Below, in pieces: positions 1,690 to 51,590 of a stretch of 64,000 bases of DNA. The translations under genes were made by a program, and so were the position numbers. Below the pieces are notes generated by a model. The model made no database searches, had not been told where the DNA came from, and saw only the letters and a program-made list of their open reading frames with translations. This DNA comes from an uncultured candidatus Porisulfidus sp. (GTDB lineage Bacteria; Pseudomonadota; Gammaproteobacteria; Poriferisulfidales; Poriferisulfidaceae). Within the stretch, counting starts at the first letter, position 1; each line of letters starts with the position of its first letter. The stretch is taken from NCBI GenBank assembly GCA_965116025.1, contig OZ220480.1:193335-257334 (forward strand), written 5' to 3'.

Positions 1690-1757
1690 CCTACAGTCTC
1701 GCGCGGATCAAGTGAGGAATTATAGCAAGTCGGGCGTGGTCGGGAGTGCCATTTCTA

Positions 1758-5947: not shown

Positions 5948-6171
5948 TAGAAATGGTATCGTAGGGCATCAGCAAATCGAAAAACTCTCCACGGAATATC
6001 TGGCCAAAACGTCGCTTCTCCCATATATTGTTCGGTGAAATTCCGCCTCCCAAACTCTCGATTTCCGTTCCCTAGATTCCGCATTGAATTGCGGCACCAT
6101 TTCCTTTGTGGGAAAATAAGACGCTATGGGACGGGATTATCAATGTTGGCAAGGAAACCGGGAGAGGGTTG

Positions 6172-8014: not shown

Positions 8015-8174
8015 ACATGCCATAGAAGCTATCGTGTTTCCGCAATTGAAATATCTTTGCTATGGCTATAGGAAAGCCGGTTTTCAGGACCCTCTGACCT
8101 CTGCGGTAAAATAATCGCCCAGCATGATTTTCTGGGCCCGCCGAGCCCGAAGCCGGACTTTCAGGAGACGTTAC

Positions 8175-9308: not shown

Positions 9309-9312
9309 CGCC

Positions 9313-12300
9313 ATGGCGAAGCGGACCGATATCGAGAGCGTCCTCGTGATCGGGGCAGGACCAATCGTCATCGGCCAAGCCTGCGAATTCGATTACTCCG
9401 GGGCGCAAGCTTGCAAGGCGCTACGCGAGGAAGGCTACCGCGTCATCTTGGTCAACTCCAACCCCGCCACCATCATGACCGACCCGCAGATGGCGCAATC
9501 CATTTATATCGAGCCAGTCGAGTGGCGAACGCTGTCGCGCGTCATTGAGCGTGAGAAGCCGGACGCGTTGTTACCAACCATGGGCGGACAGACCGCGTTG
9601 AACTGCACGCTGGACCTGCATCGAGAGGGAACGTTGCAGGCTCATGGCGTGGAGTTGATTGGCGCCTCCCTTGAAGCCATCGCGATGGCCGAGGACCGGC
9701 AACTGTTCCGGGAGGCTATGGAGGAGATCGGGCTGGAGCAGGCGCGGTCCCGGGTGGTGCGCGGCGTGGAGGAGGCGCTGGGCTTTCAGCCCCACATCGG
9801 CTATCCCGTCATCGCGCGGCCCTCGTTCACCTTGGGCGGAACGGGAGGGGGCGTGGCCAGGAGCGAGGAGGAGCTCAGGCGCGTCGTCGCGCACGGGTTG
9901 GATCTGTCGCCCACCCGCGAGGTCCTTTTGGAGGAATCTCTTCTGGGCTGGAAGGAATTCGAGATGGAGGTGGTCCGCGACGCCAAGGACAACTGCATCA
10001 TCGTCTGCTCGATCGAGAATCTGGATCCGATGGGGGTGCACACCGGAGACTCGATCACGGTCGCGCCAGCGCAGACCTTGACGGACAAGGAATACCAGCG
10101 GATGCGCGACGCCTCCATCGCGGTATTGCGCAAGATCGGCGTGGACACTGGTGGTTCCAACGTGCAGTTCGCGACGCATCCAGGAACTGGGCGATTGCTC
10201 ATCATCGAGATGAACCCGCGCGTCTCGCGCTCCTCGGCGCTGGCCTCCAAAGCGACCGGATTTCCTATCGCCAAGGTGGCGGCCCGCCTGGCCGTGGGCT
10301 ACACCCTGGACGAGTTGCGCAACGACATCACGGACGGCGCGACTCCGTGCTCGTTCGAGCCGACTCTGGATTACATCGTGACCAAGATCCCGCGCTTCAC
10401 GTTCGAGAAGTTTCCGCAGGCGGAACCGCTCCTGACGACCCAGATGAAATCGGTCGGGGAGGCGATGGCGATCGGGCGCACCTTCCAGGAATCCTTGCAG
10501 AAGGCGTTGCGTAGCTTGGAGACTGGGCAATGCGGACTGGATCCGCTTGGCCCGATGGATCGGGAAGAGCGGAAAGATCGGCTAGTCCACCCGGATCCGC
10601 ATCGGCTGAGACATGTCGCCGACGCCTTGCGCGAGGGCTGGAGCCTGGAGGAGATCCACGAACTGACCGGCATCGATCCGTGGTTCATCGCGGAAATCGA
10701 GGATCTTGTGGCGCGTGAGCGAGCCCTGTCGGGAAGGGACTTGGACGACTTGTCGAGGGAAGAGTTGCTCGTCCTGAAGCGCGCCGGGTTTTCGGACCGG
10801 CGCCTAGGGCAATTGCTTCATGTGGATGAGGAAGACGTGCGCGCGCGGCGTCACGCGCAGGGCCTGCGGCCAGTATACAAGCGGGTCGACACTTGCGCGG
10901 CGGAGTTTCCGACTTCCACGGCCTATCTCTACTCCACCTACGAGGAGGAATGCGAGGCCCGACCGACGAACGCGCGGAAAGTGGTGGTGCTCGGCGGCGG
11001 CCCAAACCGAATCGGACAGGGCATCGAATTCGACTACTGTTGCGTGCATGCCGCGCAGAGCGCGCGCGAGCTGGGCTTCGAGACCATCATGGTCAACTGC
11101 AATCCAGAGACGGTCTCCACCGATTACGACACTTCCGATCGTCTGTATTTCGAGCCTCTCGCGCTGGAGGACGTGCTGGAGATCCTGCATGTCGAGCGTC
11201 CGTACGGAGTGATCGTCCAGTTCGGGGGGCAGACTCCCCTGAAACTCGCTCAAGGATTGGCGCGGGCGGGGATCCCGATCCTGGGCACGTCCCCGGACGC
11301 GATCGACGCTTCCGAGGATCGAGAGCGCTTTACCGGAGTGCTTGATCGCCTAGGCCTGCGTCAGCCGCCGGGGGGAACGGCGCGCGACCGCGAGGGAGCG
11401 CTGAGGTTGGCCCGCGAACTAGGCTATCCTTTGGTCGTGCGGCCTTCCTACGTGCTGGGTGGGCGGGCGATGGAGATCGTGTTCGACGAAGTGGAACTCG
11501 AGCGCTACATCAAGGACGCGGTCCAAGTGTCCGACCAGACCCCGGTGTTGCTCGATCGCTATTTGCAGGACGCGGTGGAAGTCGATGTCGACGTGGTGCG
11601 CGATGGGGAGGAAACGCTGATCGGAGGGATCATGCAACACATCGAGCAGGCCGGGATCCACTCCGGGGATTCGGCCTGCTCCCTGCCCGTCTACTCGATC
11701 GAGGAACCGGTCCTGGATATCCTGCGCGACCAAGCCACGGCGCTGGCGCGCGCGCTGGAGGTGGTGGGCCTGATGAATATTCAGTTCGCGGTGCGGGGAG
11801 ACTCGATCTACGTGATCGAGGCCAACCCCCGCGCCTCGCGTACCGTGCCGTTCGTTTCCAAAGTGACCGGTCGCTCGCTGGCGCGGATCGCGACCGCCTG
11901 CATGCTGGGCCGGTCCTTGCGCGAGCAAGACTGCCGCGAGGAGGCGCGGCTGGAATACTTCGCGGTTAAGGAAGCGGTGTTTCCCTTTCTCAAATTCTCG
12001 GGGGTCGACCCGATCTTGGGCCCGGAGATGAAGTCGACCGGCGAGGTGATGGGGGTTGGCGAGCGCTTCGAGGAGGCGTTCGCCAAATCGCAACGCGCGG
12101 CCGGGGTGCGCATCCCAACTGGCGGGCGAGCCCTGATCAGCGTGCGAGACCAGGATAAGCCTGGATGCTCTCGGTTGGCGCGCGAACTGCTCGCGGCTGG
12201 CTTCGAACTGGTGGCGACCCACGGAACGGCGGAACACTTGCGCCAGGAAGGCCTGGACTGCGCTGGCATCAACAAGGTGGCGCAAGGCTCGCCTCATGTC

Positions 12301-12552
12301 GTTGACAGGATTCGGGGCGGCGAGATCGACTTGATCATAAACACGACCCAAGACAAGCTGGCGATCCGCGATTCGCTAGCCATTCGCCGGGAAGCGCTGC
12401 AACGTCAAGTTTGCTACACGACGACCTTGACCGGCGCCAGCGCGTTGGTCCGCGTGTTAAAATCCGAGGTGATCGAGGATGTGTATCAATTGCAAGCCTT
12501 GCACGAGAAGCGCGTGCGCCGGATGCCGGCGCGAGATGATGTTTCCGAATAG
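9313..12552 (+). CDS. carB: carbamoyl-phosphate synthase large subunit
   Basis: [30 protein letters not shown]..., with duplicated ATP-grasp halves and an MGS-like C-terminus. About 1080 aa. Confidence 0.95.
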
Positions 12553-12561
12553 ACCGGGAGA

Positions 12562-13041
12562 TTGATGGGCATGGTGCCAATGACCGCGCGCGGGGCCTCC
12601 CTCTTGCGCGAAGAGCTTGAGCGGCTCAAGCGAGTGGAGCGCCCGGCCGTCATCCAAGCGATCGCTGAGGCGCGCGCCCATGGGGATTTGCGCGAGAACT
12701 ACGAGTACAAGGCGGCGCGGGATCAGCAAGGATTCCTGGAAGGACGCATCAAGGAAATCGAGGCCAAGCTATCTCGCGCGCAGGTCATAGACATCTCCGA
12801 ACTGCAACTCAACGGCAAGGTGGTGTTCGGCACCACGGTGGAATTGGTCGACTTGGAATCTGGAGAGCGGGTGCGCTACCAGATTGTTGGCGAGGATGAG
12901 GCGGATATCGAGAAAGACCGGCTCTCGGTGCATACGCCGATCGCTCGGGCGTTGATCGGACGCCCGGAGGGAGAAGAGATAACGGTGGAAACGCCGGGCG
13001 GGAAAAGGGTTTTCGAAATTGTCGCGGTGCGCCGCGAATAA
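12562..13041 (+). CDS. greA: transcription elongation factor GreA
   Basis: [66 protein letters not shown]. The true start may be the ATG at 12571. Confidence 0.9.
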
Positions 13042-13118
13042 TCAGGACCGCGTAGACCGCTCGCTTACCACCATCCCGCCGCTCTTCACGGGCGTACAAT
13101 GACTCTTGCGTTCACGAG

Positions 13119-22729: not shown

Positions 22730-23336
22730 TCCGAGCCGGGAATCTCGAGCCCGGCATCCTGAAGCAACTCGATCAGGCGGATCATCGGCAACCCAATCAG
22801 AGCGGTCGGGTCGTCGCCTATGATGTGATCCGTGAGGCTGGCTCCCAGTCCCTCGGATCTGAAACTCGCGGTGCAGTTGTATGGCCTCTCGCTTCGCAGG
22901 TAACGCTTGATTACGTCCTCGCTCAATTCCTTGTAACGTACCGTGTGGCGGGACTCGGAGTAGCGGCATACGCCGGCGCTGGTGTCCAGAAGGCATAGAC
23001 CGGTCAGGAAAGCCACCTCCTGCCCGCTGAGCTGGCGTAGTTGCTCCACGGCCGCGCCATGCGTTCCCGGCTTGCCCAGCAACTTCCCGCTTAGCTCCGC
23101 GCACTGGTCGCTACTGATTATCAGGGAATCCGGGTGTCGGACCCCAACCTCCGCGGCCTTCTCATGGGCGAGCCGTCGCACGTAGTCCGAAACCCTCTCG
23201 CCTAGCCGCGGGGTCTCGTCGATATCGGGCGCGTCCACCGTGAAGTCTAGGCGCAAGCGTTCAAGAAGTTCTCGACGATAAGGAGAGCTGCTACCGAGCA
23301 CGAGAGGACGCGTCGCCGCCATTTCGATCATCATGG
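22726..23336 (-). CDS. maf: Maf-family nucleoside triphosphate pyrophosphatase
   Basis: LVLGSSSPYRRELLERLRLDFTVDAPDIDE...SLIISSDQ. The likely start is the MIEMAATRPLVLGSSS Met (the ORF track extends to 23382). Confidence 0.8.
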
Positions 23337-25010
23337 CGAGAGACCGACAGGATTTTCGTTGGACAGCGGAGCTCGGTTCCATCGCGCGTCTCGCTTCCGG
23401 TCTGGATTCGCGATTACGTGCAAGTAGGAAGTGGCGCGGCTAAACCCGACGTAAGCGAATCGGTCTGGACTCTCTCCAGAAGGTCGGTCGAGCACCACGA
23501 CCACCGCGAGGGATTCCAGTCCCTTAAAACGAGCGATCGTCTCGGTCACGATGCCATCGGCATCATACTGGCAAAAAACAGTGTCGGATACATCCATATC
23601 GAGGAGGCGATTCCGGAGAGACGGCGTTTCGCAAAGCACGACAATATCCTGCCGTTCAAAGTTCTCGGACAATAGGCGGTCAACGACTCGGCGTACGATC
23701 TTTTCTGGTTTCTGGGAAGGCTGGAGGTCCGTCCAGCGGGGTTTCGGACCGGATGCCCCGGAAGCGAGCGTGGTCGCCCCAGTGGTAGCCGCGACTCGCT
23801 CGGCGATCGGTTGCGCGTTTCGGCAGTTCATGGACAAATCGATCATCACGAAACCTTCGGGCGTGTCCCAGTCCCTTTCCCACAGTTTTTGGTCCTCATC
23901 CGCCAAAATCAGGAACGGAGTGTCCGAACCCCTTTCGCAAAGCGTCTGGAGCGCCTCGAGCCAAAGGCTGGAAAAGTCTTGGCCCTCATCAACGATGATC
24001 GCGTCGAATCGCGCGCCCGCCCGCTCCGCCGCGTCAACGAGAATATAAGGCACTTCCTTCTCCCACCATTCCGCTTGAGGCGCGTCGGGAACCTCGACTC
24101 CGGCCTGGCGCGCCGTGGACATGCATAAGGCATGAAACGTGTGCGCCGCAACCCCCTCCAAGGAGGGGTCGTCCCCGAGTTTTTGACCAAGCAGTTTGTT
24201 GTAGCAGGTCAGCAGCACTCGATGACCCGACGCGTGAAGTTGCCTCGCTTTCTCGCAAGCGAGAATCGTTTTTCCTGTGCCAGCCCCACCGAACACGACG
24301 ACTCGCCGATTCCGGCGCATCATGTCAAGAACCCGAATCTGCTCCTCGGTCAAATTCACAAGGCGGACCTTGGCATCGTGCGCCTCATCAGACAGGGTTC
24401 GCCGAACCTGGACGGTAGGCGCCAAGGCGTTAGCGATATCTTGGACTTGACGGAAGGATAAATCCGCGGAAAGCCGCCAATGAAGAACTACATCGCGAAT
24501 GGCGGAAGGCGCGTCCGTCAAATGGCCCGCGTCCAACGCGATCGCTTTCGGGGCATCTGGACCCAACAACGGCAATTCCCGCAAGTCAGGGAACCAAACG
24601 GCATGGCACGTCGGAACGCGACGCTCGAATCGCTCCGCTATGAACCGACCCAGAGCGGCCTTGGACGCTACCGCCTGCTCAAACGGGTTTTTGATGTCGT
24701 GGACTTCCTCGTTTCGGTCCCGGGACTTCCAACGTCCGGCTTCGACGTGGACTCCTCCGCCCTTCACCTCAAGCACGACGATCCCATGCGACCGATGAAT
24801 CAGGACAAAATCCGCTTCTCCGTCGCCGGTCCGTCGCCCGCGCGGGCCCTGCCAAGCGACGGAGTGAAGCACCGTCCAATCATCGGATAGCGTAGACAGC
24901 GCGTCGTAGACCTTCCGTTCCGAATCGGCATCGACTCCGACTGTGGGGCAGGCGAATGTGATGGCCATGACCGTGGCGTTTCCGTTCGACTCCGGCTCAC
25001 CCGAAGTCAA
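23331..25010 (-). CDS. NERD-domain protein fused to a UvrD/DUF2075-like P-loop helicase
   Basis: N-terminal NERD-like region (SERKVYDALSTLSDDWTVLHSV...GEADFVLIHRSHGIVVLEVKGG) and a Walker A motif VVVFGGAGTGKTILACEKARQL. The likely start is MAITFACP at ~24965. Confidence 0.6.
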   Translation of the reverse strand: MTSGEPESNGNATVMAITFACPTVGVDADSERKVYDALSTLSDDWTVLHSVAWQGPRGRRTGDGEADFVLIHRSHGIVVLEVKGGGVHVEAGRWKSRDRNEEVHDIKNPFEQAVASKAALGRFIAERFERRVPTCHAVWFPDLRELPLLGPDAPKAIALDAGHLTDAPSAIRDVVLHWRLSADLSFRQVQDIANALAPTVQVRRTLSDEAHDAKVRLVNLTEEQIRVLDMMRRNRRVVVFGGAGTGKTILACEKARQLHASGHRVLLTCYNKLLGQKLGDDPSLEGVAAHTFHALCMSTARQAGVEVPDAPQAEWWEKEVPYILVDAAERAGARFDAIIVDEGQDFSSLWLEALQTLCERGSDTPFLILADEDQKLWERDWDTPEGFVMIDLSMNCRNAQPIAERVAATTGATTLASGASGPKPRWTDLQPSQKPEKIVRRVVDRLLSENFERQDIVVLCETPSLRNRLLDMDVSDTVFCQYDADGIVTETIARFKGLESLAVVVVLDRPSGESPDRFAYVGFSRATSYLHVIANPDRKRDARWNRAPLSNENPVGLSP

Positions 25011-25438: not shown

Positions 25439-27268
25439 TTGGCCCGAGCACGGGATTCCGTAGCAATCTCATTTCTAATCCCATTGACGCTGCTGGCGGC
25501 GTCGCTGTCGGCGCTGTCGCTGTCGGCGCGGGCGGAGACGATCAACCTGTACGGGTGGCAGAACCACTCGTGGGAGTTCGTGGACATCGACGGCGGGCGC
25601 AGCTTCGACCGCATTCAGTCGAACGCCGGGAACATCGGCTTCTCGGCCAGCGTGGACACCGGCATGAGCGACATAAAGGTGAACCTGCAGTGCGAGCAGT
25701 TCACCTACTACAACCACTTCGCCGGCGGCACCGGCTGGTGCAACCGCAACTCCAAGATCGGGCTGGCGCATCCGATGGCCGGCGAGATCATGTTCGCCAC
25801 CTGGCTGCTGCCGTACAACGAGGGCGTGGCCCAATGGGTGGACCCGTTCTACGACGCCGGGGCCGACTCGCACACCAGCATCATGGGCTCGGTCGGGGCC
25901 AACACCATCTTCTACAACACCGGCGACTTCGACCAGCAGGCGTCGGCGTCCAATCCTGGCACTGGCTTCTCCGGCAACGAGTTCAACTACGCCGGGGGCG
26001 GCTACGACACCGGCTTCAACCGGCGCCAGGAGAACATCATCCAGTACTGGTCGCCGAACTGGAACGGCTTCGTGTTCCGCTTCGCCTGGACGGCCGGCAA
26101 TCGCGACGAGACCCACGCGCTCAAGGACGCCAAAGGTAATTACGCGGCCGGCCCCAAGATCGACCCGGTGATCCGCTCGAGCAGCCTGGCGTACACGAAC
26201 GGCCCGCTGTGGCTGGCGGCGACCTGGCAGGACCACGAGGACTGGACGGCGGTCTCGGTCGGGGAGATGGAGAGCTCGGACGCGGAGAGCTTCCGTCTGG
26301 CCGGGCGCTACATCATGGACCTGGGCGACGGCATGAGCGTTCAATTGTCCGCCATGTGGGAGACCTTGGAGTACGAGTTCCACGGCGTGACCACCATCGA
26401 TAAGGCCATGAAGGCGTTCGGGTATGGGAATTTCATGGATTCTTACGAGTTGAGCGTCACGGATGCGGAGATAATGAAGAAGAAGACCCAAGGGCTGGCG
26501 CTCGATATCTTGACGGATGAGAAGGGCATGCTGATTCCTATGGGGGACACGGCGCGGGGTTTATATGGGGAGCAGGTTAAAACCACTATGAGCCTGTACA
26601 CCGCATACATGGGTGAGATAGACACCGTAACCTCCACCAGCTTGAACTTGGTCGCTGAACGCAGAACTGTGGTCGACTGGAACGACTATTACAAAGAGGC
26701 GCCTGATAATCCTGTTAAAGTCAGCACTACCGCCATGCGAACCGGGTCCCAAAATGTCATGCTTTTCACGACCATGCTGAGCACGACTACGCTGAACGCG
26801 GCCAAAACGGCCGCGGAGGAGGCCAAAAAGAAGGATATGGATGATCGAACGGGCGAGGACAAATCGAAAATCAAGTTCTATGACGACCTGGTCTCGATGG
26901 CGAAATCCCGAGCCCGCGACGAGAAGAGCATGGGCGGGAACGTGAAGATCGAGCGAGACGCCTGGATGGTGTCGGGCAAGATCAAGTTCGGCGGCCCGCT
27001 GGACTTCCGCTTCTCCTACATGGACGCCGACGACCTGGAACTGTCGTGCAACTACTGCATGGGAGACTGGGACGAGACGGCGGCGGACGCCTGGAACGTC
27101 GGGGTGTTCTACACGATGCCGGCGGGGACCGAGCTGCGGCTGACGTATTCGGAAGTCAACAACGACGACAACGGGACCTACGGGCAGGGCATCTCGGGGA
27201 CTGGCTTGGGAGTGGCTGGCGCGGAGATCGAGATGTTCGCGCTGGGGATCGTGCACTGGTTCGACTGA
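25439..27268 (+). CDS. porin-like family copy 3 (N-form B, cassette type X)
   Basis: Near-identical framework to the other copies. There is no ATG, so the ORF track uses TTG at 25439 (MARARDSVAISFLIPLTLLAASLSALSLSARA then ETINLY). Its cassette is almost identical to copy 1. Confidence 0.7.
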   Translation: MARARDSVAISFLIPLTLLAASLSALSLSARAETINLYGWQNHSWEFVDIDGGRSFDRIQSNAGNIGFSASVDTGMSDIKVNLQCEQFTYYNHFAGGTGWCNRNSKIGLAHPMAGEIMFATWLLPYNEGVAQWVDPFYDAGADSHTSIMGSVGANTIFYNTGDFDQQASASNPGTGFSGNEFNYAGGGYDTGFNRRQENIIQYWSPNWNGFVFRFAWTAGNRDETHALKDAKGNYAAGPKIDPVIRSSSLAYTNGPLWLAATWQDHEDWTAVSVGEMESSDAESFRLAGRYIMDLGDGMSVQLSAMWETLEYEFHGVTTIDKAMKAFGYGNFMDSYELSVTDAEIMKKKTQGLALDILTDEKGMLIPMGDTARGLYGEQVKTTMSLYTAYMGEIDTVTSTSLNLVAERRTVVDWNDYYKEAPDNPVKVSTTAMRTGSQNVMLFTTMLSTTTLNAAKTAAEEAKKKDMDDRTGEDKSKIKFYDDLVSMAKSRARDEKSMGGNVKIERDAWMVSGKIKFGGPLDFRFSYMDADDLELSCNYCMGDWDETAADAWNVGVFYTMPAGTELRLTYSEVNNDDNGTYGQGISGTGLGVAGAEIEMFALGIVHWFD

Positions 27269-27318: not shown

Positions 27319-27843
27319 GTGGGCTCAGGAATTCCTGACAGGTCCGCCACCAGGCGGGACCAAGACGATGGCCAGCCTCGAGACCGAGACGGACCCGCTT
27401 CGGACTACCCCCCGAATGCTTGGAGTGGCTCCACGGAAGCCGTGAGGGAAACTCCGGTTTCAGGCTTTCATCAAAGACTGTGCACCCGATATTCTTGAGA
27501 AAGGAGTTCCGGGGACCGATGGACTTGTGAAAGCCTTGGTTCACCCACCGCGCGAGCGAGACGCGTCGCGCGAAGTCCACTCGATCAAGGGCGATGGCCC
27601 TCTCGCTCTTTTCCTCCCCGAGGCGCGCGCTGACCCGAACCCTCCGGTTTCCCGCCGCCTCGCCTGGATTCCAGCTATACCGAGAATTCTCGGTCCTCCA
27701 TCACTTTGTCGTGGATTGGGTCATCCCGATCTCGCCCGCCGCGAGCGAATGGCCTTCCGAGCGTGTGGCGGGCGCGGCGAAGCCAGGTCTCGCGCCGCCG
27801 GCGCTGGCCCGACTCCCGATCTGGCCGCGAAACGCCGGATCCA

Positions 27844-27876
27844 AAGAAAGCGGGCGCCCGAAGGCGCCCGCTCGCT
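27844..27876 (-). terminator. rho-independent terminator of copy 4
   Basis: Mirror GC hairpin plus T-tract on the minus strand. Confidence 0.7.
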
Positions 27877-27894
27877 GTCGTGAATGACGAAGGG

Positions 27895-29830
27895 TCAGTC
27901 GAACCAGTGCACGATCCCCAGCGCGAACATCTCGATCTCCGCCCCCGGCGTCCCCAGGCCAGTCCCCGAGATGCCCTGCCCGTAGGTCCCGTTGTCGTCG
28001 TTGTTGACTTCCGAATACGTCAGCCGCAGCTCGGTCCCCGCCGGCATCGTGTAGAACACCCCGACGTTCCAGGCGTCCGCCGCCGTCTCGTCCCAGTCTC
28101 CCATGCAGTAGTTGCATGACAGCTCCAGGTCGTCGGCGTCCATGTAGGAGAAGCGGAAGTCCAGCGGGCCGCCGAACTTGATCTTGCCCGACACCATCCA
28201 GGCGTCCCGCTCGATCTTCACGCTCGACCCCATGGTCTGCTCCAGCTTGGCGGCAGCATATTTTTCCTTGCCCTCCTCGTATGCCGTCATGGCATCGTCG
28301 TAGGCTTTCTTAGCCTCGTTGTACTTCTCGTCATATGGCCTCATGGCCTCCTCCTTGACCTTCGCCACGTATTCCTTGTACCAGTCAGCGCCTGTTTTGT
28401 CGCCCGAATATTTCGTGGTCGATGTCTTTAAAGTATTCAGTGTCGTGGAGCTCAGTTTGGTGGTAACGAGCGTTCGCAGCGCCTGATCCGTTCCTATAGT
28501 GTTAAGTCTATAGTATTGAACCAGCTTTCTCCGATGTACGAGGCCAGAACCCCATTGCGCTAGCTCTGTGTGGAAGCTGCCTTGGAGAGTACTTAATTCC
28601 TTGGGCACCGCGATATTACTGAGGCTTGATGTCGCGCTCTTGCTATCCACTGGAATGGTCCGCCAGTACCCGCTCTCGTCAAGCAACATCTCCATCGCAA
28701 GCCCTTGGGTCATCTGCGCGTCGATCTCGGCTTGGGTGGCCATCCCTCGTTCAGGCTTCGTCGTGGTCGGCTTCGTCGGCATGTCCATGTCGGCGGGGGC
28801 CATGACCTTCATGTCGTAGTAGGTCTTCTCGAAATGGTTGATGTTGGGATCGGTGCCGCCGTACCCGAACGCCTTCATGGCCTTGTTAATGTCGGTCACG
28901 CCGTGGAACTCGTACTCCAAAGTCTCCCACATGGCCGACAATTGAACGCTCATGCCGTCGCCCAGGTCCATGATGTAGCGCCCGGCCAGACGGAAGCTCT
29001 CCGCGTCCGAGCTCTCCATCTCCCCGACCGAGACCGCCGTCCAGTCCTCGTGGTCCTGCCAGGTCGCCGCCAGCCACAGCGGGCCGTTCGTGTACGCCAG
29101 GCTGCTCGAGCGGATCACCGGGTCGATCTTGGGGCCGGCCGCGTACTTGCCCTCGGCGTTCTTGAGCGCGTGGGTCTCGTCGCGATTGCCGGCCGTCCAG
29201 GCGAAGCGGAACACGAAGCCGTTCCAGTTCGGCGACCAGTACTGGATGATGTTCTCCTGGCGCCGGTTGAAGCCGGTGTCGTAGCCGCCCCCGGCGTAGT
29301 TGAACTCGTTGCCGGAGAAGCCAGTGCCAGGATTGGACGCCGACGCCTGCTGGTCGAAGTCGCCGGTGTTGTAGAAGATGGTGTTGGCCCCGACCGAGCC
29401 CATGATGCTGGTGTGCGAGTCGGCCCCGGCGTCGTAGAACGGGTCCACCCACTGGGCCACGCCCTCGTTGTACGGCAGCAGCCAGGTGGCGAACATGATC
29501 TCGCCGGCCATCGGGTGCGCCAGCCCGATCTTGGAGTTGCGGTTGCACCAGCCGGTGCCGCCGGCGAAGTGGTTGTAGTAGGTGAACTGCTCGCACTGCA
29601 GGTTCACCTTTATGTCGCTCATGCCGGTGTCCACGCTGGCCGAGAAGCCGATGTTCCCGGCGTTCGACTGGATGCGGTCGAAGCTGCGCCCGCCGTCGAT
29701 GTCCACGAACTCCCACGAGTGGTTCTGCCACCCGTACAGGTTGATCGTCTCCGCCCGCGCCGACAGCGACAGCGCCGACAGCGACGCCGCCAGCAGCGTC
29801 AATGGGATTAGAAATGGTATCTCCTCGAAA
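27895..29830 (-). CDS. porin-like family copy 4 (N-form B, cassette type Y')
   Basis: Full-length framework with an intact cassette homologous to the two halves of copy 2. There is no in-frame ATG near the signal peptide (...EEIPFLIPLTLLAAS). The ORF-track extension to 29973 reads into the IS4 junction. Confidence 0.7.
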
Positions 29831-29975
29831 TCCCAATCCCACCGAGAACCATGATGACCATGCGCCCCAAGACTCCGCCCAAGAGACCGTGGAAACCGAA
29901 ATCCACCGATCCCCGGAGCATGGGAAACTGAGACGAAACCATGGCTGATTCTGAAACTTCGGGATGACTCCAACT

Positions 29976-31311
29976 CACTAGTGTCCCAACGTTTCAGTTC
30001 GATTGGTCTGCAATAGATTGTTTATAATGAGTTTTTTCGCGATTTCCAGCGTTGTCGATTTCAATCTTTGGCCGGAGCCCGTGGCGGACCCTGCCCGGCG
30101 CGAGCTGTCGCGAGGGGGGTCAAGCCAATGCATTCCGGAAAACTCGTGTTCGCTCAAGTGATGGATCATCTTCCCTGGCCCAGTTTCCAGCGGCGCGTCG
30201 AGCGCCACGGCGGACATCACAAGGTCAAGTCCTTCAGTTGCGGCGATCAGTATCGCTGCATGGCTTTCGCGCAACTGACCTATCGGTCCTCCCTGCGCGA
30301 CGTCGAGGCCTGCCTGCGCGCGCAGTCGAGCAAGCTGTACCACATGGGCATCCGCGGGGGCGTGGCGAGGAACACGCTGGCGAACGCCAACGCGACCCGG
30401 GACTGGAGGATCCATGCCGATTTCGCGCGCGACCTGATTGACGAGGCGCGGCGTCTTCTTGGCGAGGAGAGCCACGGACTGGATCTGGACCGCACCGTCT
30501 ACGCGTTGGACTCGTCCACCATCGACCTGTGCCTGTCGCTGTTTCCGTGGGCGCCGTTTCGCGCGACCAAGGCGGCCGTCAAGATGCATACGCTGCTCGA
30601 CCTGCGCGGAAACATCCCGACTTTTCTGCATGTTACGGACGGAAAGGTTCACGACGTGAACATTCTGGACCTGCTGGTTCCAGAGCCCGGGGCCTTCTAC
30701 GTCATGGATCGGGCCTACCTCGATTTCTCCCGCTTGCACGCGCTGCGCCTGCATGGGGCCCACTTCGTGTTGCGCTCCAAGTCCAACATCAAACTCCGGC
30801 GCTTGTCTTCCCGCGCGGCCGACCGCGACGCGGGCGTTCTTCGCGACCAGGTGGTCCGGGCCAGCGGCGCCACCACCGCGAGCGCCTATCCCGACCGGCT
30901 TCGGCGCGTCAAGCATCGAGACCGAGAGCGGGAGAAGACCCTCGTGTTCCTGACCAACGACTTCACGCTTCCGGCGCGGACGATCGCCGAGCTGTATCGG
31001 GCGCGCTGGCGCGTGGAGCTGTTCTTCAAATGGATCAAGCGGCATCTGAGGATCCAGTCGTTCTTCGGCACGACGGAGAACGCCGTGAAGACCCAGATCT
31101 GGATCGCGATCTCGGTTTACGTGCTGGTGGCGATCCTTCGGAAGCGGTTGCGGCTGGAGACGGAGCTGCGCGCTATTCTCCAGATTTTGAGCCTCACTCT
31201 TTTTGAGAAAGTTCCTTTATATCAATTACTTGCGAAGAATGAACCCCAAATCGAACTGCCGGGGGGCCCTAAACAGTTGAATTTGCTACCATTAACGTTG
31301 GGACACTAGTG
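29976..31311 (+). mobile_element. IS4-family insertion sequence (1336 bp), perfect 18-bp terminal inverted repeats, 9-bp target-site duplication
   Basis: Left end CACTAGTGTCCCAACGTT (29976-29993). Right end AACGTTGGGACACTAGTG (31294-31311). Direct repeat ACTCCAACT at 29967-29975 and 31312-31320. Confidence 0.85.
30068..31309 (+). CDS. IS4-family DDE transposase
   Basis: 413 aa, with an IS4-like N-terminal domain (MHSGKLVFAQVMDHLPWPSFQRRVERHGG...KVKSFSCGDQY) and a DDE core. Confidence 0.85.
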   Translation: MAGARGGPCPARAVARGVKPMHSGKLVFAQVMDHLPWPSFQRRVERHGGHHKVKSFSCGDQYRCMAFAQLTYRSSLRDVEACLRAQSSKLYHMGIRGGVARNTLANANATRDWRIHADFARDLIDEARRLLGEESHGLDLDRTVYALDSSTIDLCLSLFPWAPFRATKAAVKMHTLLDLRGNIPTFLHVTDGKVHDVNILDLLVPEPGAFYVMDRAYLDFSRLHALRLHGAHFVLRSKSNIKLRRLSSRAADRDAGVLRDQVVRASGATTASAYPDRLRRVKHRDREREKTLVFLTNDFTLPARTIAELYRARWRVELFFKWIKRHLRIQSFFGTTENAVKTQIWIAISVYVLVAILRKRLRLETELRAILQILSLTLFEKVPLYQLLAKNEPQIELPGGPKQLNLLPLTLGH

Positions 31312-31473
31312 ACTCCAACTATGCCGACAGATTGCCGAACCAACCCATTCCGAGGCAGGAAACGACGACGATGGCCACCCTAATAGGCGAGCGTCTTGAG
31401 CGTTGGCTTATGCGGTGTGAGAGTCGATGTCTACCATCGGGCGATACTGAGTGATGGAATTGATAATTCGCGC

Positions 31474-33033
31474 TTATTTGACTGGCACGGGAGACGTGAA
31501 CACGAATCGAGCCAAGCCATCGCCATAGCGGACCGCGCACCGTGATGGCAAAGACTGCAACATGTTGGTGTCCACAAGGTAGCGCTCTGACTGACGCAGG
31601 CCACGAATGTTTCGCTCGCGCTCGGCGAGGACCGCGTTGGCCTCGAAATCGCGCATCTCGTCATCGATTAGGATGCTGCCGCTCATGCGGGCCAGCCATA
31701 ATGCCGTGTCTGGATCGTTGACCCGGTAGGCGAATTTCAGGCCGCAGTTCTCGGTTACTGAAGATATCACCTGTTCCGGGTCCAGATCGTCGGGAACGTT
31801 GCGCAAGTCGTTGACCGTCTGATGCGCCAGCACTAGGTGCGCCCGTTTGTCCCGGATAGAGGCGAGCGCCTCCAGTAGCGGAGCGCTGATCAGATAGCGG
31901 AGCTCATCCAGAAACATGCAGACTTGGCGGGATCTTTCGCGGGCGCGGCGCTCGCAACTCTGGATCACCGACAGCACGAACATCTTCTGAAGCTTGAGAA
32001 TACGGGAGTGGCGTGGGGAGCCGAGCACGTAGATCACCGCGCCCTCCTCAATCGCTCGCGCGACATCCAACCCCTCCTCGGCCCGAGCCGCGGGGGTCGC
32101 CGCGATCTCTTCCATATCATCAATGAACTTCGTGGCCTTGCGCGCAACGGTCTCGCTTCGGAACGTCGCCAAAAGATTCGGCAGGGACTCGCCGTCATGC
32201 AACCGCGCGAATTCTCGTGCGGCGCGACGATCATTGAGACGATAGAAATCCGCCTCGGAGCCTCGCTCTCCGAGGCCGAAGCTTGCCACCAGGAGCTCCT
32301 CAATCTCATCGGAACTCTTTCCGCGCAGGGGATTCCATCGCGCCTCCTCGCCCATGAGATCCAAGCGATAGAAGGGTTTGCCGGCCTCGCGGGCCGCACG
32401 CTCCAAGACTCGTGGAGCGTACTCGTCACGCTTAGGGTCCACCACCACGACCGCCTCGCCTTGCCGCGCGGCCTGGGTTAGCAGAATTCCTGCCAAGACA
32501 CCTTTTCCACTTCCGGTCATCCCGATAATATCGATATGGGACCGCCTCCATAGATTCTGATCCACGTGCACGGGATCGCCGTTCGGATCCAGCCCTAAAA
32601 ATAGTCGGTCATCAGACTGGCAGAACGGCAAGGGGTCATACTCGTTCCGGGCCTTCGGCAGGAAGTCTCCGATGTCGCGGATATCGGTCCGCGCGTCCCG
32701 GGCCAGTGGGCTACGTTTCATCCATCGCGCGCGCCACCGCTCGAGCGCGCCGCTTCCTCGACGCGCCATGAGGATGGCCAGCGCGGTGCCAATGAGAAAC
32801 TGTCCCATGAAGAGCGGGACATGCCAGCCCGGATGGTTTGTCCCTATCGCATGCGGCACCAGCACCAAGAGCGCCGTAAAGACGGACAAGGTCAGCATCA
32901 GCAAGCCAAGCGCCCTCGGCGCTTGTAGCAGACCAAGCGTCATGAGAATGCCGCCGGGCAACCCAAGCCAAGGCCAACTCCATCCGTAGAACATGTTTTC
33001 GGACAGGCCGCCGACGATCTCCCAAAACCCCAT
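31474..33033 (-). CDS. TraD/VirD4/TrwB-like type IV coupling ATPase (orphan)
   Basis: N-terminal transmembrane segments, Walker [15 protein letters not shown], Walker [12 protein letters not shown], and LAHQTVNDL. No other conjugation genes lie nearby. Confidence 0.6.
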
Positions 33034-33057
33034 GCGAGCGTCCTATTGGGGTCGGGC

Positions 33058-33147
33058 TGGCGGAGAGGGAGGGATTCGAACCCCCGGAACCTTTCGATTC
33101 AACGGTTTTCAAGACCGCCGCATTCGACCACTCTGCCACCTCTCCGC
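33058..33147 (-). tRNA. tRNA-Ser (anticodon UGA)
   Basis: The reverse complement reads GGAGAGGTGGCAGAGTGGTCGAATGC...CGGTCTTGAAAACCG...GGGGGTTCGAATCCCTCCCTCTCCGCCA. It has a long variable arm, an anticodon loop CTTGAAA, and a 3' CCA. Confidence 0.9.
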
Positions 33148-33183
33148 ATAGCGTTCCGGTGGACCGCGTCCGCGCGAGCCAGT

Positions 33184-33990
33184 CTACACCGCGAGCACGT
33201 CCTGCATGGAATACAGGCTAGGAGGCTGACCCACCACCCAAGCGGCCGCGCGCATGGCGCCACTGGCGAAGATCTCCCGGCTTCCGGCATGGTGCGCCAG
33301 CTCCAGCCGCTCGCCGTTCCAAGCGAAAATCACCCGGTGCTCACCGACCACGTTCGCCATTCGCATGATGTGGAACTGTATCTTGTCGATTTCCCGCTCG
33401 ACACCCGTCGCCAGTGCCTGAAAAGACGCGCAATCCGGGAATCGCTGGCCAGTTCCCTTGGCCACGGCCTCGCCCAGCGCTAGCGCGGTGCCAGAGGGCG
33501 CGTCATGCTTCTCGCGATGATGCAATTCTACGATGTCCGCTTCCGCTTCGGAACCAAGCGCCTTGGATGCCGCGGTGACCAGATTCAGCATCAGGTTAAT
33601 GCCAACGCTCATGTTCGGCGCCATCACGATAGGAATTTCCCGGGCTCCTTGGGCGATAGCCTCCAGCTGCTTTTGGTCGTGCGCGGTCGTGCCGATGACC
33701 ATTCCCTTGTTTTTCTCCACGCAGAATTGAACCAGATCCACCGTGTACTCGGGGCAGGTGAAGTCAATAGCCACATCGAAGTCCGTGTGACAGTATTCCA
33801 GCGATCCAGAAATCGCCACGCCCGATTCCTTTCCTCCCGTGAACAGTCCCGCATCCCGCCCAATCACCAACTCGTCCTTGCTACGCGAGCTAGCCGCGCC
33901 GAGCGTGATGCCGGGGGTCTCCAGCGATACTCGAACCAGGATGCTTCCCATGCGGCCGGTGACCCCGGCGATTCCCACGCGAACCTTCTC
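33184..33990 (-). CDS. dapB: 4-hydroxy-tetrahydrodipicolinate reductase
   Basis: [20 protein letters not shown] (NAD(P)-binding) ... [14 protein letters not shown]. Located downstream of dnaJ as in Pseudomonas-type synteny. Confidence 0.85.
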
Positions 33991-43953: not shown

Positions 43954-44061
43954 TGGAGAATCCTCCCTGAAAAGATAGCGACTAGTTTACCAAATCCCTA
44001 GCCACGCGAGTTTCTGGGTTTCTCGATTTGCTGATGCTCTACGATACCATTTCTAATCCCA

Positions 44062-45948
44062 TTGACGCTGCTGGCGGCGTCGCTGTCGGCGCTGTCGCTG
44101 TCGGCGCGGGCGGAGACGATCAACCTGTACGGGTGGCAGAACCACTCGTGGGAGTTCGTGAACATCGACGGCGGGCGCAGCTTCGACCGCATCCAGTCGA
44201 ACGCCGGGAACATCGGCTTCTCGGCCAGCGTGGACACCGGCATGAGCGATATCAAGGTGAACCTGCAGTGCGAGCAGTTCACCTACTACAACCACTTCGC
44301 CGGCGGCACCGGCTGGTGCAACCGCAACTCCAAGATCGGGCTGGCGCATCCGATGGCCGGCGAGATCATGTTCGCCACCTGGCTGCTGCCGTACAACGAG
44401 GGCGTGGCCCAATGGGTGGACCCGTTCTACGACGCCGGGGCCGACTCGCACACCAGCATCATGGGCTCGGTCGGGGCCAACACCATCTTCTACAACACCG
44501 GCGACTTCGACCAGCAGGCGTCGGCGTCGGGGCCGGCGACCGGCTTCTCCGGGGCGGAGTTCAACTACGCCGGGGCCGGCTACGACACCGGCTTCAACCG
44601 GCGCCAGGAGAACATCATCCAGTACTGGTCGCCGAACTGGAACGGCTTCGTGTTCCGCTTCGCCTGGACGGCCGGCAACCGCGACGAGACGATGGCGCCG
44701 ACCGGCGGCGGGAAGATCGACCCGGTGATCCGCTCGAGCAGCCTGGCGTACACGAACGGCCCATTGTGGCTGGCGGCGACCTGGCAGGACCACGAGGACT
44801 GGACGGCGGTCTCGGTCGGGGAGATGGAGAGCTCGGACGCGGAGAGCTTCCGTCTGGCCGGGCGCTACATCATGGACCTGGGCGATGGTATGAGCGTGCA
44901 GCTGTCGGCCATGTGGGAGACTTTGGAGTACGAGTTCCACGGCGTGACCACGGTCGAGAAGGCGATGGCGGCGTTCGGCTACGGGAACTTCGCGTCCTCC
45001 TACGCCGAGCCGATCTACGCCATGGATGCGGCCACCAAGAAGGTGGACGAGACGGTCATGGACCCCACCCAGGCCGAGATCGACGCGCAGAAAACTCGTG
45101 GAGCGGCGCTCGAGTTCCTCACGGACGAGAAGGGGCTCCTAAGGTCGATGGAGGTTAAAGAAGGGGACAGTGGCAACCCGAGAGGCACATCCTTAAAAGG
45201 AATGTTCGTATCCAAGCCTTTATTCAATGATCTCACCACGAACGATAAAGGAATGCTGATCGGCTGGACGGATCAGACCGATCTGAGCATGCCTGATGCC
45301 ACCTCAGTTCATGGCGCGTACGCGGCCTTCCTCACCACTGACGCCGCCAAAACGGCTATTCGAGCGGGAAACCTGAAAGAGGTGATGCGCAAGCAGTCGT
45401 TCTACACCACCCGGCTGACCTCCACCGAGCTCACGGCTCTGAAGCTACCCGATAAAGCTGTCTCAGGAGCGGATACCGGCGCGGTGGTTGGCGACAAATG
45501 GCTCTACGACAACATCGTGGCGCATGCCAAGACCGAGGCCAAGAAGATGAAGGAAACGGCCAAGGAGGCGGAGATGAAGGCCGTGGAGACGGCCCGGATG
45601 GCCAAGAGCATGGGGTCGAACGTCAAGATCGAGCGGGACGCCTGGATGGTGTCGGGCAAGATCAAGTTCGGCGGCCCGCTGGACTTCCGCTTCTCCTACA
45701 TGGACGCCGACGACCTGGAGCTGTCGTGCAACTACTGCATGGGGGACTGGGACGAGACGGCGGCGGACGCCTGGAACGTCGGGGTGTTCTACACGATGCC
45801 GGCGGGGACCGAGCTTAGGCTGACGTATTCGGAAGTCAACAACGACGACAACGGGACCTACGGGCAGGGCATCTCGGGGACCGGCCTGGGGACGCCGGGG
45901 GCGGAAATCGAGATGTTCGCGCTGGGGATCGTGCACTGGTTCGACTGA
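44062..45948 (+). CDS. porin-like family copy 5 (N-form A, cassette type Z)
   Basis: Conserved frameworks. An in-frame TGA sits immediately upstream of ...IPFLIPLTLLAAS, so the only available start is TTG at 44062. Promoter-like box TTTCTCGATTTGCTGATGCTCTACGATACC upstream. Confidence 0.7.
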   Translation: MTLLAASLSALSLSARAETINLYGWQNHSWEFVNIDGGRSFDRIQSNAGNIGFSASVDTGMSDIKVNLQCEQFTYYNHFAGGTGWCNRNSKIGLAHPMAGEIMFATWLLPYNEGVAQWVDPFYDAGADSHTSIMGSVGANTIFYNTGDFDQQASASGPATGFSGAEFNYAGAGYDTGFNRRQENIIQYWSPNWNGFVFRFAWTAGNRDETMAPTGGGKIDPVIRSSSLAYTNGPLWLAATWQDHEDWTAVSVGEMESSDAESFRLAGRYIMDLGDGMSVQLSAMWETLEYEFHGVTTVEKAMAAFGYGNFASSYAEPIYAMDAATKKVDETVMDPTQAEIDAQKTRGAALEFLTDEKGLLRSMEVKEGDSGNPRGTSLKGMFVSKPLFNDLTTNDKGMLIGWTDQTDLSMPDATSVHGAYAAFLTTDAAKTAIRAGNLKEVMRKQSFYTTRLTSTELTALKLPDKAVSGADTGAVVGDKWLYDNIVAHAKTEAKKMKETAKEAEMKAVETARMAKSMGSNVKIERDAWMVSGKIKFGGPLDFRFSYMDADDLELSCNYCMGDWDETAADAWNVGVFYTMPAGTELRLTYSEVNNDDNGTYGQGISGTGLGTPGAEIEMFALGIVHWFD

Positions 45949-51507: not shown

Positions 51508-51590
51508 TTAGGAAGAGCGACGTTTTGGCCAGATATTCCGTGGAGAGTTTTTCGATTTGCTGATGCCCTACGATACCATTTCTAATCCCA

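Follow-up and report, generated by a model that had tools for sequence, protein, structure and literature searches.

An intact, probably mobile IS4-family insertion sequence of the ISPosp4/ISGme2 clade in the spacer upstream of a porin paralog

The window, that is, the whole 64-kb stretch of DNA that was analysed, very likely carries an intact and probably mobile IS4-family element of the ISPosp4/ISGme2 clade, which entered the spacer between a tRNA-Ser/TraD-like gene pair and a porin paralog (copy 4) by simple insertion. No evidence contradicting this identification was obtained. The coordinates of the element and of the neighbouring features were listed in Table 1.

Table 1. Features of the insertion sequence and of its surroundings, in window positions
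Feature	Position	Strand	Evidence or remark
Insertion sequence, 1336 bp	29976..31311	+	Repeats, duplications, comparison of ends with relatives L001, L002, ISPosp4, ISGme2 and the Thiodictyon element
Left target-site duplication ACTCCAACT, 9 bp	29967..29975	.	Abuts the left inverted repeat
Left terminal inverted repeat CACTAGTGTCCCAACGTT	29976..29993	+	Repeat finder, mismatch-tolerant search
Candidate transposase promoter TCGATT-18 nt-TATAAT	29999..30028	+	Relaxed scan; consensus match only
Transposase gene, 393 aa, single frame, TAG stop inside the right inverted repeat	30128..31309	+	ORF list, profile matches
Right terminal inverted repeat, 18/18 complementary to the left	31294..31311	-	Repeat finder, mismatch-tolerant search
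Right target-site duplication ACTCCAACT, 9 bp	31312..31320	.	Abuts the right inverted repeat
Porin paralog copy 4 (Pfam Porin_4), intact, downstream of the insertion	27898..29820	-	PF13609, 66 bits
Orphan TraD/VirD4-like coupling-protein ATPase gene, upstream of the insertion, co-directional with copy 4	31474..33033	-	Domain matches
tRNA-Ser(UGA)	33058..33145	-	Pairs with the TraD-like gene, conserved in three relatives

The element is a complete insertion sequence, real and well defined. The initial annotation had described inverted repeats of 18 bp without mismatch, flanked by a target duplication of 9 bp, and both descriptions held on re-inspection: the two repeats are exact reverse complements of each other, and identical 9-mers stand directly outside them. 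When the left repeat was searched through the whole 64 kb with up to three mismatches allowed, only the two inverted repeats were returned, where shuffled sequences would be expected to give 0.01 matches. The outermost 8 bp of the left repeat, CACTAGTG, form a palindrome. By our own arithmetic, nine bases beside two given ends would agree by chance with a probability of 4^-9, or about 4e-6. The repeat finder itself gave longer units, 19 bp for the inverted and 11 bp for the direct repeat. The bases beyond the 18-bp and 9-bp units are coincidental, since A is the first and T the last base of the duplication, and the right end happens to close with the same 'TG' that precedes the left duplication. 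A third occurrence of ACTCCAACT, at 4734-4742 inside porin copy 2, was treated as a chance match, 0.22 being expected per window. No second copy of the element was found in the 64-kb window, and the element is thus not part of a composite transposon within these 64 kb.

The transposase is encoded in a single open reading frame without frameshift, and its length is shared by the related proteins P0001 and P0002. Residues 121-333 matched PF01609 (DDE_Tnp_1) with 116 bits against a cut-off of 23, residues 4-76 matched PF14294 (DUF4372) with 104 bits, and the NCBIfam model NF033592 (IS4 family transposase) was passed with 261.2 bits against its cut-off of 115. The candidate catalytic residues D128 (in LDSST), D194 (in MDRAY) and E297 were assigned by motif context, not by structure. 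It has been reported that the hallmark of the IS4 family is the motif Y-(2)-R-(3)-E-(6)-K in region C1, the E of which is the DDE glutamate; that IS4-family target duplications measure about 8-13 bp; and that IS701, ISH3 and IS1634 make duplications of 4-6 bp and are without the full YREK motif (De Palmenaer, Siguier & Mahillon 2008, PMC2266710). In our transposase this motif is complete (Y290-RA-R293-WRV-E297-LFFKWI-K304). Judged by its sequence, the element belongs to the IS4 family, with a DDE_Tnp_1-type transposase, the YREK motif, a single-frame gene, a duplication of 9 bp and the NF033592 match; the family membership proposed in the initial annotation is thus one on which Pfam, the NCBIfam profile and the YREK motif all agree. 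It is highly improbable that the element belongs instead to a neighbouring DDE family (IS5, IS1634, IS701 or ISH3) or is an inactive relic. Weak partial matches to the IS1634, IS701 and IS5 models and to DDE_Tnp_1_4 would point towards such a misclassification, as would the solved-structure search, in which phmmer found no match at E<=1 among PDB chains including those of Tn5 transposase. However, the competing models all scored far below their cut-offs (IS1634, 53.9 bits against 100; IS701, 26.6-35.1 against 150-250; IS5_3, 28.3 against 110; IS1380, 19.4 against 180; IS982, 19.1 against 130), while NF033592 exceeded its own cut-off more than twofold, and the complete YREK motif and the 9-bp duplication are unlike those of IS701, ISH3 and IS1634 (PMC2266710). 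Against the relic reading, the open reading frame is not shortened in comparison with its relatives, and the two inverted repeats match at every base. The element is probably still mobile. The candidate transposase promoter of Table 1 came from the relaxed scan and was absent from the list of the stricter one.

The boundaries of the element were confirmed by relatives inserted independently elsewhere, which share its ends and are also flanked by 9-bp duplications. These relatives carry exactly CACTAGTG or a variant with one or two base changes on both sides. The duplication reads TCACAGTGC in L001 and CTTCTAAAT in L002 (both from ENA ERZ25068685), AGATTCGAT in ISPosp4 (1328 bp), AGTGGAATA in ISGme2 (1314 bp) and ACGACGAGC in an element of Thiodictyon syntrophicum pTs417 (1332 bp). 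A perfect 9-bp duplication was present in 13 of 25 full-length relatives, namely L001, L002 and 11 of the 23 pairs from the genome contig collection. The clade showed a weak A-N7-T target preference (A at position 1 in 12/18, T at position 9 in 11/18), with which ACTCCAACT agrees. The same terminal 18-mer occurred in at least 119 stretches of species-representative genomes, with record titles from many bacterial phyla. L001/L002 were the closest relative (82% amino acid and 80.5% nucleotide identity), and in a collection of 5.8 billion proteins no transposase more than 82% identical was found apart from P0001, the source contig's own entry. The genome with the nearest transposase (82%) has housekeeping genes 67-90% identical to those of the window, and the G+C content of the element (60.4%) equals that of the window (60.5%). 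These facts suggest that the IS lineage has long been resident and did not arrive recently from elsewhere.

The target was a non-coding spacer of about 330 bp between the tRNA-Ser/TraD-like pair and copy 4, and the element lies antisense to both protein genes. The domain matches of the TraD-like gene were all below the NCBIfam family cut-offs; its orthologs are 77-80% identical. Copy 4 is one of eight porin copies in the window and shares 70-90% amino acid identity with the other seven. Its similarity to the paralogs starts at 29818, with a conserved in-frame TTG at 29802, so that the insertion lies 157 nt upstream of the first paralog-shared base, in good agreement with the 'about 150 bp' first given, and 173 nt upstream of the TTG. 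Rfam returned only the tRNA-Ser over 27500-33500 and no RNA element at the target, and the reconstructed spacer folded no better than its shuffles (z = +0.2). The initial annotation had also stated that copy 4 has been parted from its native upstream DNA by the element. This was correct in part: a 153-nt stretch, which is the 3' flank of the TraD-like gene, has been cut away, but 157 nt remain attached to copy 4. Moreover, no upstream region is common to the eight paralogs, and there is thus no family-wide 'native' promoter to lose. A recurrent insertion beside a TraD-like ortholog, considered on account of the DUF87 gene adjoining L001, was rejected because L001 has no similarity to the TraD-like region of the window; the true TraD-like ortholog on the contig of L001 lies elsewhere (L122).

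The element arrived as a simple insertion that occurred once. Given the matching duplication, the empty site predicted earlier, GGGATGACTCCAACTATGCCG, is the right reconstruction. A 26-mer across this reconstructed empty site (TCGGGATGACTCCAACTATGCCGACA) had no match in the genome or metagenome contig collections. Neither did a 29-mer made of the left flank and the duplication, which fits filled and empty alleles alike, match any of the metagenome contigs, which indicates that the source population is not represented among them. Three orthologous loci (L122, L123 and L125) were inspected as possible empty sites, and in each of them nucleotide similarity ends with the TraD-like stop codon; the nearest relatives are different species (DnaK at most 92% identical). 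The description of the insertion as recent is plausible, but by our own calculation the unchanged 9 + 9 nt bound its age only loosely, the upper limit being about 0.17 substitutions per site (95%), and the empty site was found in neither contig collection. Similarly, the view that the porin family sits in a hot spot for mobile DNA was borne out in some respects. There is an IS110-family gene between copies 6 and 7, at 59720-60812 stands a broken IS5-family gene, and in each of the four related genomes examined other DNA follows the TraD-like gene; however, the window is otherwise housekeeping chromosome.

The insertion most likely would have had no effect on copy 4, or would have cost it read-through from the upstream gene. 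The reading that we tentatively prefer, at somewhat less than an even chance, is that copy 4 was already poorly expressed or silent, and that the spacer which received the element tolerates insertions and is prone to recombination. Copy 6 alone has an AGGAG-spaced ATG, a Lys-Lys start to its signal peptide and an AT-rich stretch upstream, and the in-frame start codons of copy 4 are TTG only (29973 and 29802). The variable DNA behind the TraD-like gene marks a plastic junction, and the fit of ACTCCAACT to the weak target preference of the clade also suits a neutral landing. On the other hand, copy 4 is not obviously decaying, since its open reading frame is intact over the roughly 640 codons common to the copies and has a high GC3 like theirs. 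A possible but rather unlikely alternative is that copy 4 needs transcription that arrives from upstream, be it from a promoter beyond the attached 157 nt or by read-through of the tRNA-Ser/TraD-like unit on the same strand, and that the antisense element blocks it; silencing is one of the two effects that the initial annotation had named. Before the insertion the TraD-like gene and copy 4 lay on the same strand about 330 bp apart, with no terminator-like site found between them and no significant structure in the reconstructed spacer. Besides, the scans showed no sigma-70-like promoter within the 157 nt that copy 4 has kept, and copy 4 is without a Shine-Dalgarno sequence and ATG start of the kind seen in copy 6. 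However, the scans were equally blank upstream of most other copies, which makes such absences uninformative, and the upstream region differs in every paralog, so that copy 4 may never have been well expressed.

Activation of copy 4 by the insertion, the other effect suggested at first, is unlikely. Outward or hybrid promoters have been documented for IS10 and other IS4-family elements, for example ISAba1. It is very doubtful that copy 4 would be transcribed here in such a way, from an outward promoter comparable to pOUT of IS10, placed at the transposase-proximal end, or from a hybrid promoter at the junction. The end facing copy 4 is indeed the transposase-proximal one, and a transcript running outward from it would read copy 4 in the sense direction. 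Against this, the minus strand from 30140 to 29780 contained no -35/-10 pair even under relaxed criteria (3/6 + 4/6 matches), a stricter scan was blank on either strand, and 157-173 nt separate the end of the element from the point where copy 4 may start. As consensus scans have little power and found almost nothing upstream of the other paralogs, these blanks count as weak negative evidence. We also regard as a long shot a model in which the eight porin copies would form a variation system, with copy 6 as the expression copy and seven start-less copies, and in which the element would switch copy 4 on or fix it off. If this were true, the insertion would be functional and not incidental, switching on would proceed via outward or hybrid transcription, and the IS clade would regulate which surface protein an uncultured marine gammaproteobacterium uses.

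The value of these results is chiefly one of annotation, since the exact ends, the target duplication and the transposase of an unnamed IS4-family element have been defined. The clade, as marked by its terminal 18-mer, has a very wide distribution among environmental bacteria. The spacer downstream of the tRNA-Ser/TraD-like pair was marked as a plastic junction in this lineage, and copy 4 was flagged as the paralog whose expression most likely varies between strains. Knowledge of transposition or gene regulation is unchanged, the element being of an ordinary, common and well-understood kind.

Among the known subgroups of the family, IS4Sa comprises elements of 1150-1750 bp with ends CA------T and direct repeats of 8-10 bp (Table 1 of De Palmenaer, Siguier & Mahillon 2008, PMC2266710). 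Our element, with 1336 bp, ends CACTAGTGT (T at position 9), a 9-bp duplication and a complete YREK motif, resembles it, and a provisional placement in IS4Sa, drawn from DNA features only, would fit by size, ends and duplication length. The IS10 subgroup (5'-CT termini, 1200-1350 bp, 9-bp direct repeats; PMC2266710) was rejected because the termini of the element are 5'-CA, although its size and direct-repeat length would fit. The IS50 subgroup, with the end consensus CW------Y---CA-A--W-, a length of 1350-1550 bp and a Tn5-type transposase (PMC2266710), was rejected as well, since positions 13-14 of the element are AA and not CA, position 16 is G and not A, its length is 1336 bp and no Tn5 structure was matched. 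The literature search returned nothing usable on the subgroup assignment of ISPosp4 or ISGme2.

With IS10 (of Tn10) and IS50 (of Tn5) themselves, the element shares a DDE transposase with YREK, terminal inverted repeats and a 9-bp target duplication, whereas its transposase has DUF4372 as N-terminal domain and no detectable similarity to the solved Tn5 transposase structures. The mechanistic analogy therefore rests on family membership. A hairpin intermediate occurs in the transposition of IS10 and IS50. By analogy with these two elements, the transposase would bind both terminal inverted repeats, the element would be excised by cut-and-paste and joined to target strands cut 9 bp apart, and repair of the gaps would produce the 9-bp duplication. 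The IS4 family as a whole has been described as cut-and-paste, in vivo for IS231A, with in vitro study limited to IS10R and IS50R (PMC2266710).

The unnamed environmental elements (L001/L002, the Thiodictyon element and those of many MAGs) are like ours in carrying the same 18-mer or a variant with one or two base changes, in their length of 1308-1426 bp and in their 9-bp duplications, but they differ in insertion sites and duplication sequences, and their transposases are at most 82% identical. The nearest named IS4-family elements are ISPosp4 (Polaromonas sp. JS666 plasmid 2) and ISGme2 (Geobacter metallireducens plasmid), which likewise encode one DUF4372 + DDE_Tnp_1 transposase of about 390 aa, measure about 1.31-1.33 kb, have termini CA(C/G)TA(G/C)TGTCC and generate 9-bp duplications. 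However, transposase identity is 58% to ISPosp4 and 53% to ISGme2, and the inner half of the inverted repeat reads ...TCCCAACGTT in our element and ...TCCGGTTAAA in these two. By the ISfinder convention a new name is given below about 95% amino acid or 90% nucleotide identity. An isoform of ISPosp4 or ISGme2 was therefore rejected, as these identities, like the best values from another genome (82% and 80.5%), are under the threshold, and the element is a previously unnamed IS that would probably earn a new name beside its two plasmid-borne relatives.

The element between porin copy 4 and the TraD/VirD4-like coupling-protein ATPase gene, which the initial annotation had described as an IS4-family element with 18-bp inverted repeats and a 9-bp duplication at 29967-31320, proved to be real and accurately described. 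It is an intact IS4-family insertion sequence (IS) with features of the IS4Sa type; its clade is ISPosp4/ISGme2-like, and it is standard in mechanism and architecture, 1336 bp long and with a G+C content of 60.4% (window, 60.5%). At up to 3 mismatches, its terminal repeat CACTAGTGTCCCAACGTT matched only the two ends of the IS in the 64-kb window (0.01 matches expected from shuffles), and no second copy of the IS was found there. The duplicated 9-mer was present on both sides on re-inspection. A repeat finder reported a 19-bp inverted and an 11-bp direct repeat, but the extra bases were shown to be coincidental by comparison with relatives, whose ends confirmed the annotated boundaries. The outermost 8 bp, CACTAGTG (29976-29983, 31304-31311), form a perfect palindrome that, at each end of the IS, carries TAG on either strand, and the transposase stop codon TAG (31307-31309) falls within the right repeat. 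The internal 10-bp inverted repeat just inside the ends is possibly due to chance, since it is not conserved in L001, an IS copy with an 82% identical transposase.

Features of the window and short elements in other genomes (genome_contigs stretches)
Feature	Position	Strand	Remarks
Porin_4 paralog, first	1746-3524	+	
Porin_4 copy 2	about 4116-5959	-	
Defence-like gene	6106-7395	+	AAA_21 ATPase, partial similarity to MADS3 and PtuA
Defence-like gene	23331-25010	-	NERD-domain helicase-like protein, UvrD-helicase and AAA-domain matches
Porin_4 copy 3	25466-27265	+	
Porin_4 copy 4	29820-27898	-	
Target duplication	29967-29975, 31312-31320		ACTCCAACT, abuts both ends
Left inverted repeat	29976-29993		CACTAGTGTCCCAACGTT
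Internal inverted repeat	29995-30004, 31249-31258		CAGTTCGATT / AATCGAACTG
Transposase	30128-31309	+	single ORF, 393 aa
Right inverted repeat	31294-31311		exact reverse complement of CACTAGTGTCCCAACGTT
tRNA-Ser(UGA) and TraD-like gene	31474-33145	-	conserved pair; L122, L123, L125 5889-7572
Porin_4 paralog, fifth	44044-45945	+	
Porin_4 copy 6	48440-46545	-	
IS110-family transposase	49182-50357	+	between porin copies 6 and 7
Porin_4 copy 7	51573-53483	+	
Porin_4 paralog, eighth	56013-54088	-	
IS5-family transposase (NF033578)	59720-60812	-	broken in two overlapping frames
Short element, L013	1066-1258		perfect 9-bp duplication
Short element, L041	7310-7502		perfect 9-bp duplication
Short element, L111	2174-2377		perfect 9-bp duplication
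Short element, L121	171-364		perfect 9-bp duplication
Short element, L047	5709-5879		8/9 duplication
Short element, L101	1984-2152		7/9 duplication

The transposase gene has an SD-like sequence (GAGGGGGG) 8 nt 5' of its ATG and an alternative TTG start at 30068. Its product matched Pfam DUF4372 (residues 4-76, 104 bits) and DDE_Tnp_1 (residues 121-333, 116 bits; cut-off 23) and the NCBIfam model NF033592 'IS4 family transposase' (261 bits, cut-off 115), while the IS1634, IS701, IS5, IS1380 and IS982 models and three other IS4 models were all below cut-off. Candidate catalytic residues are D128 (LDSST), D194 (MDRAY) and E297, and the YREK signature is full, Y290-(2)-R293-(3)-E297-(6)-K304.

The transposase was searched against a collection of 5.8 billion proteins. 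The best match (P0001, 100% identical) was the source's own, from one 2.02-Mb contig held by NCBI and ENA; the second (P0002) was 82% identical and all others were at most 75%. P0002 is encoded by two IS copies, L001 and L002, on one 1.07-Mb contig of ENA ERZ25068685, each 1332 bp long, with 80.5% DNA identity to the IS, termini CACTAGTGTCCCAACGT(T/A) on each side and different 9-bp duplications (TCACAGTGC, CTTCTAAAT). With 82% identity to its closest relative in a different genome, the IS probably deserves a new name. At least 119 stretches in the collection of species-representative genomes carry the terminal 18-mer; the matches listed come from MAGs and isolates labelled Proteobacteria, Desulfobulbaceae, Acidobacteria, Nitrospirae, Omnitrophota, Acidimicrobiia, Pirellulales, Aminicenantes and others. 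Of 25 full-length pairs (1308-1426 bp), 13 had a perfect 9-bp duplication, with an 8-of-9 match in one more. There were also elements of 169-218 bp with the ends of the clade and 9-bp duplications, which look like non-autonomous, MITE-like derivatives in other genomes; the six tabulated measure 169-204 bp, and one of them has a single mismatch in its 18-bp terminal repeats. The 18 perfect duplications compiled start with A in 12 cases and end with T in 11, a weak A-N7-T target preference with which ACTCCAACT agrees.

The window represents an ordinary part of the chromosome of an uncultured gammaproteobacterium, whose nearest DnaK matches, with identities of 92% or less, are in MAGs labelled Gammaproteobacteria. 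Its genes run from carA-carB-greA, a TonB-dependent receptor, rimP-nusA-infB and truB through an S49 peptidase gene, maf and the NERD-helicase gene to porin copies 3 and 4 and the IS, followed by the TraD-like gene, tRNA-Ser(UGA) and dapB-dnaJ-dnaK-grpE (all minus strand), nadK and recN. The IS has split the spacer that separates copy 4 from the TraD-like stop codon (31474), leaving 153 nt on the TraD-like side, with its transposase gene antisense to both neighbors. The intact duplication means that the two flanks adjoined each other before the IS inserted, and the empty site predicted in the initial annotation is therefore correct. Direct scans of genome_contigs and metagenome_contigs gave no match to the 26-mer of the empty site, and the left flank alone had none in metagenome_contigs.

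Three relatives, L122, L125 and the TARA ocean scaffold L123, carry TraD-like orthologs (77-80% identical). tRNA-Ser(UGA) directly precedes the gene in all three, and dapB-dnaJ-dnaK-grpE lies upstream, as in the window, in two. These loci were unusable as empty sites because DNA similarity to the window ends at the TraD-like stop codon. Beyond it, L122 has a polyprenyl synthase gene, L125 a Fic gene, L123 small ORFs followed by carA-carB-greA-TonB, and the window the IS with copy 4; this difference in each relative indicates that the junction is plastic in the lineage. The orphan ATPase itself scored below all TraD/VirD4 family cut-offs, and the window ORFs that were scanned included no further conjugation genes. 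The carA-carB-greA-TonB block of L123 (8332-13286) is 83% identical in nucleotides to window 8098-13050, which lies about 18-23 kb away from the TraD-like gene and is inverted. This displacement suggests an inversion, and the porin paralogs, copies of which lie near both ends of the rearranged segment, may have taken part in it.

A recent insertion and an active element would agree with the perfect repeats, the intact ORF and the duplication free of changes. The annotated recency holds to that extent, but the bound on age is loose: 18 unchanged neutral sites give less than about 0.17 substitutions per site at 95%. The closest known relative of the IS has 82% aa and 80.5-82.5% nt identity to it; between the window and the genome of this relative, amino acid identity was 90% for DnaK, 81% for DapB and NadK, 79% for the TraD-like protein, 75% for DnaJ and 68% for GrpE, so that the IS relative is about as diverged as the housekeeping genes of its host. 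This similar divergence, together with the matching G+C content, suggests that the IS lineage has long been resident in this bacterial clade and was not freshly imported.

Eight Porin_4 paralogs with 70-90% amino acid identity are dispersed through the window. Their common DNA begins abruptly at ACCATTTCTAAT, within the signal peptide, and upstream of it they are otherwise unrelated in DNA. Copy 6 alone has AGGAG-N7-ATG at Shine-Dalgarno spacing, a Lys-Lys n-region and an AT-rich upstream region (38% G+C); the other seven offer no more than an in-frame TTG or ATG within the signal peptide. The family might comprise one expression copy and start-less copies. Two ORFs (4676-5947 and 4116-4679, minus strand) make up copy 2, whose tblastn match breaks between aa 439 and 486; this copy is probably a pseudogene with a frameshift. 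Over its N-terminal 390 aa, copy 4 is 89.5% identical to copy 2 and about 72% to the rest, which suggests a mosaic.

Copy 4 is uninterrupted across the approximately 640 codons common to the other copies, and its only canonical in-frame starts are TTG 29973, inside the duplication, and TTG 29802. The IS does lie about 150 bp upstream of copy 4, as was annotated, but the claim that it separates copy 4 from its native upstream region stands only in part: 157 nt are kept to the first paralog-shared base (29818) and 173 nt to the conserved TTG 29802, and, the paralog upstream regions being mutually unrelated, there is no common native promoter region to remove. A neutral insertion is tentatively ranked as the leading outcome for copy 4. 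It is rather unlikely that the insertion costs copy 4 read-through from the upstream unit, a reading favored by the shared orientation of copy 4 and the TraD-like gene. Activation by an outward promoter of the IS ranks last and is very improbable, as even a relaxed scan gave no promoter facing copy 4. In 29600-31600, the tool scan was negative on both strands for sigma-70-like promoters and for terminators, and the relaxed scan gave only TCGATT-18-TATAAT at 29999-30028 (+), plausible by its sequence as the transposase promoter. Such scans are of little power here, since they were nearly blank upstream of the other paralogs too. The reconstructed spacer had no significant RNA structure (z = +0.2) and no Rfam match.

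The family was also said to sit in a hot spot for mobile DNA. The IS110-family gene (Pfam DEDD_Tnp_IS110 and Transposase_20; NF033542, 229 bits, cut-off 140), the broken IS5-family gene and the defence-like genes adjoining porin copies 2 and 3 speak for this, but most of the window is conserved housekeeping DNA. The IS5-family frames cover profile positions 65-128 (60129-60812) and 137-418 (59720-60601), and the gene is probably a degraded IS.

Among known elements, the nearest in annotated plasmids were a Thiodictyon element (66% aa; 1332 bp; termini CACTAGTGTCCCAACG, duplication ACGACGAGC), ISPosp4 (58%; 1328 bp; CAGTAGTGTCCGGTTAAA, AGATTCGAT) and ISGme2 (53%; 1314 bp; (T/C)ACTACTGTCCGGT, AGTGGAATA), while ISRm16, ISRel1, ISAbe18 and IS5377 are remoter kin (29-33% identity). 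This shared anatomy places the IS in a well-populated clade of fixed architecture. De Palmenaer et al. (PMC2266710) give the YREK signature and the lack of a frameshift as hallmarks of the IS4 family; in the families IS701, ISH3 and IS1634, which were split off, the motif is incomplete and the duplications are 4-6 bp long. The IS does not fit the CT ends of IS10 or match the end consensus of IS50 (PMC2266710). The IS4Sa subgroup has lengths of 1150-1750 bp, ends CA------T and direct repeats of 8-10 bp (PMC2266710, Table 1), and by these DNA features the IS, with its 1336 bp, ends CACTAGTGT and 9-bp duplication, fits IS4Sa.
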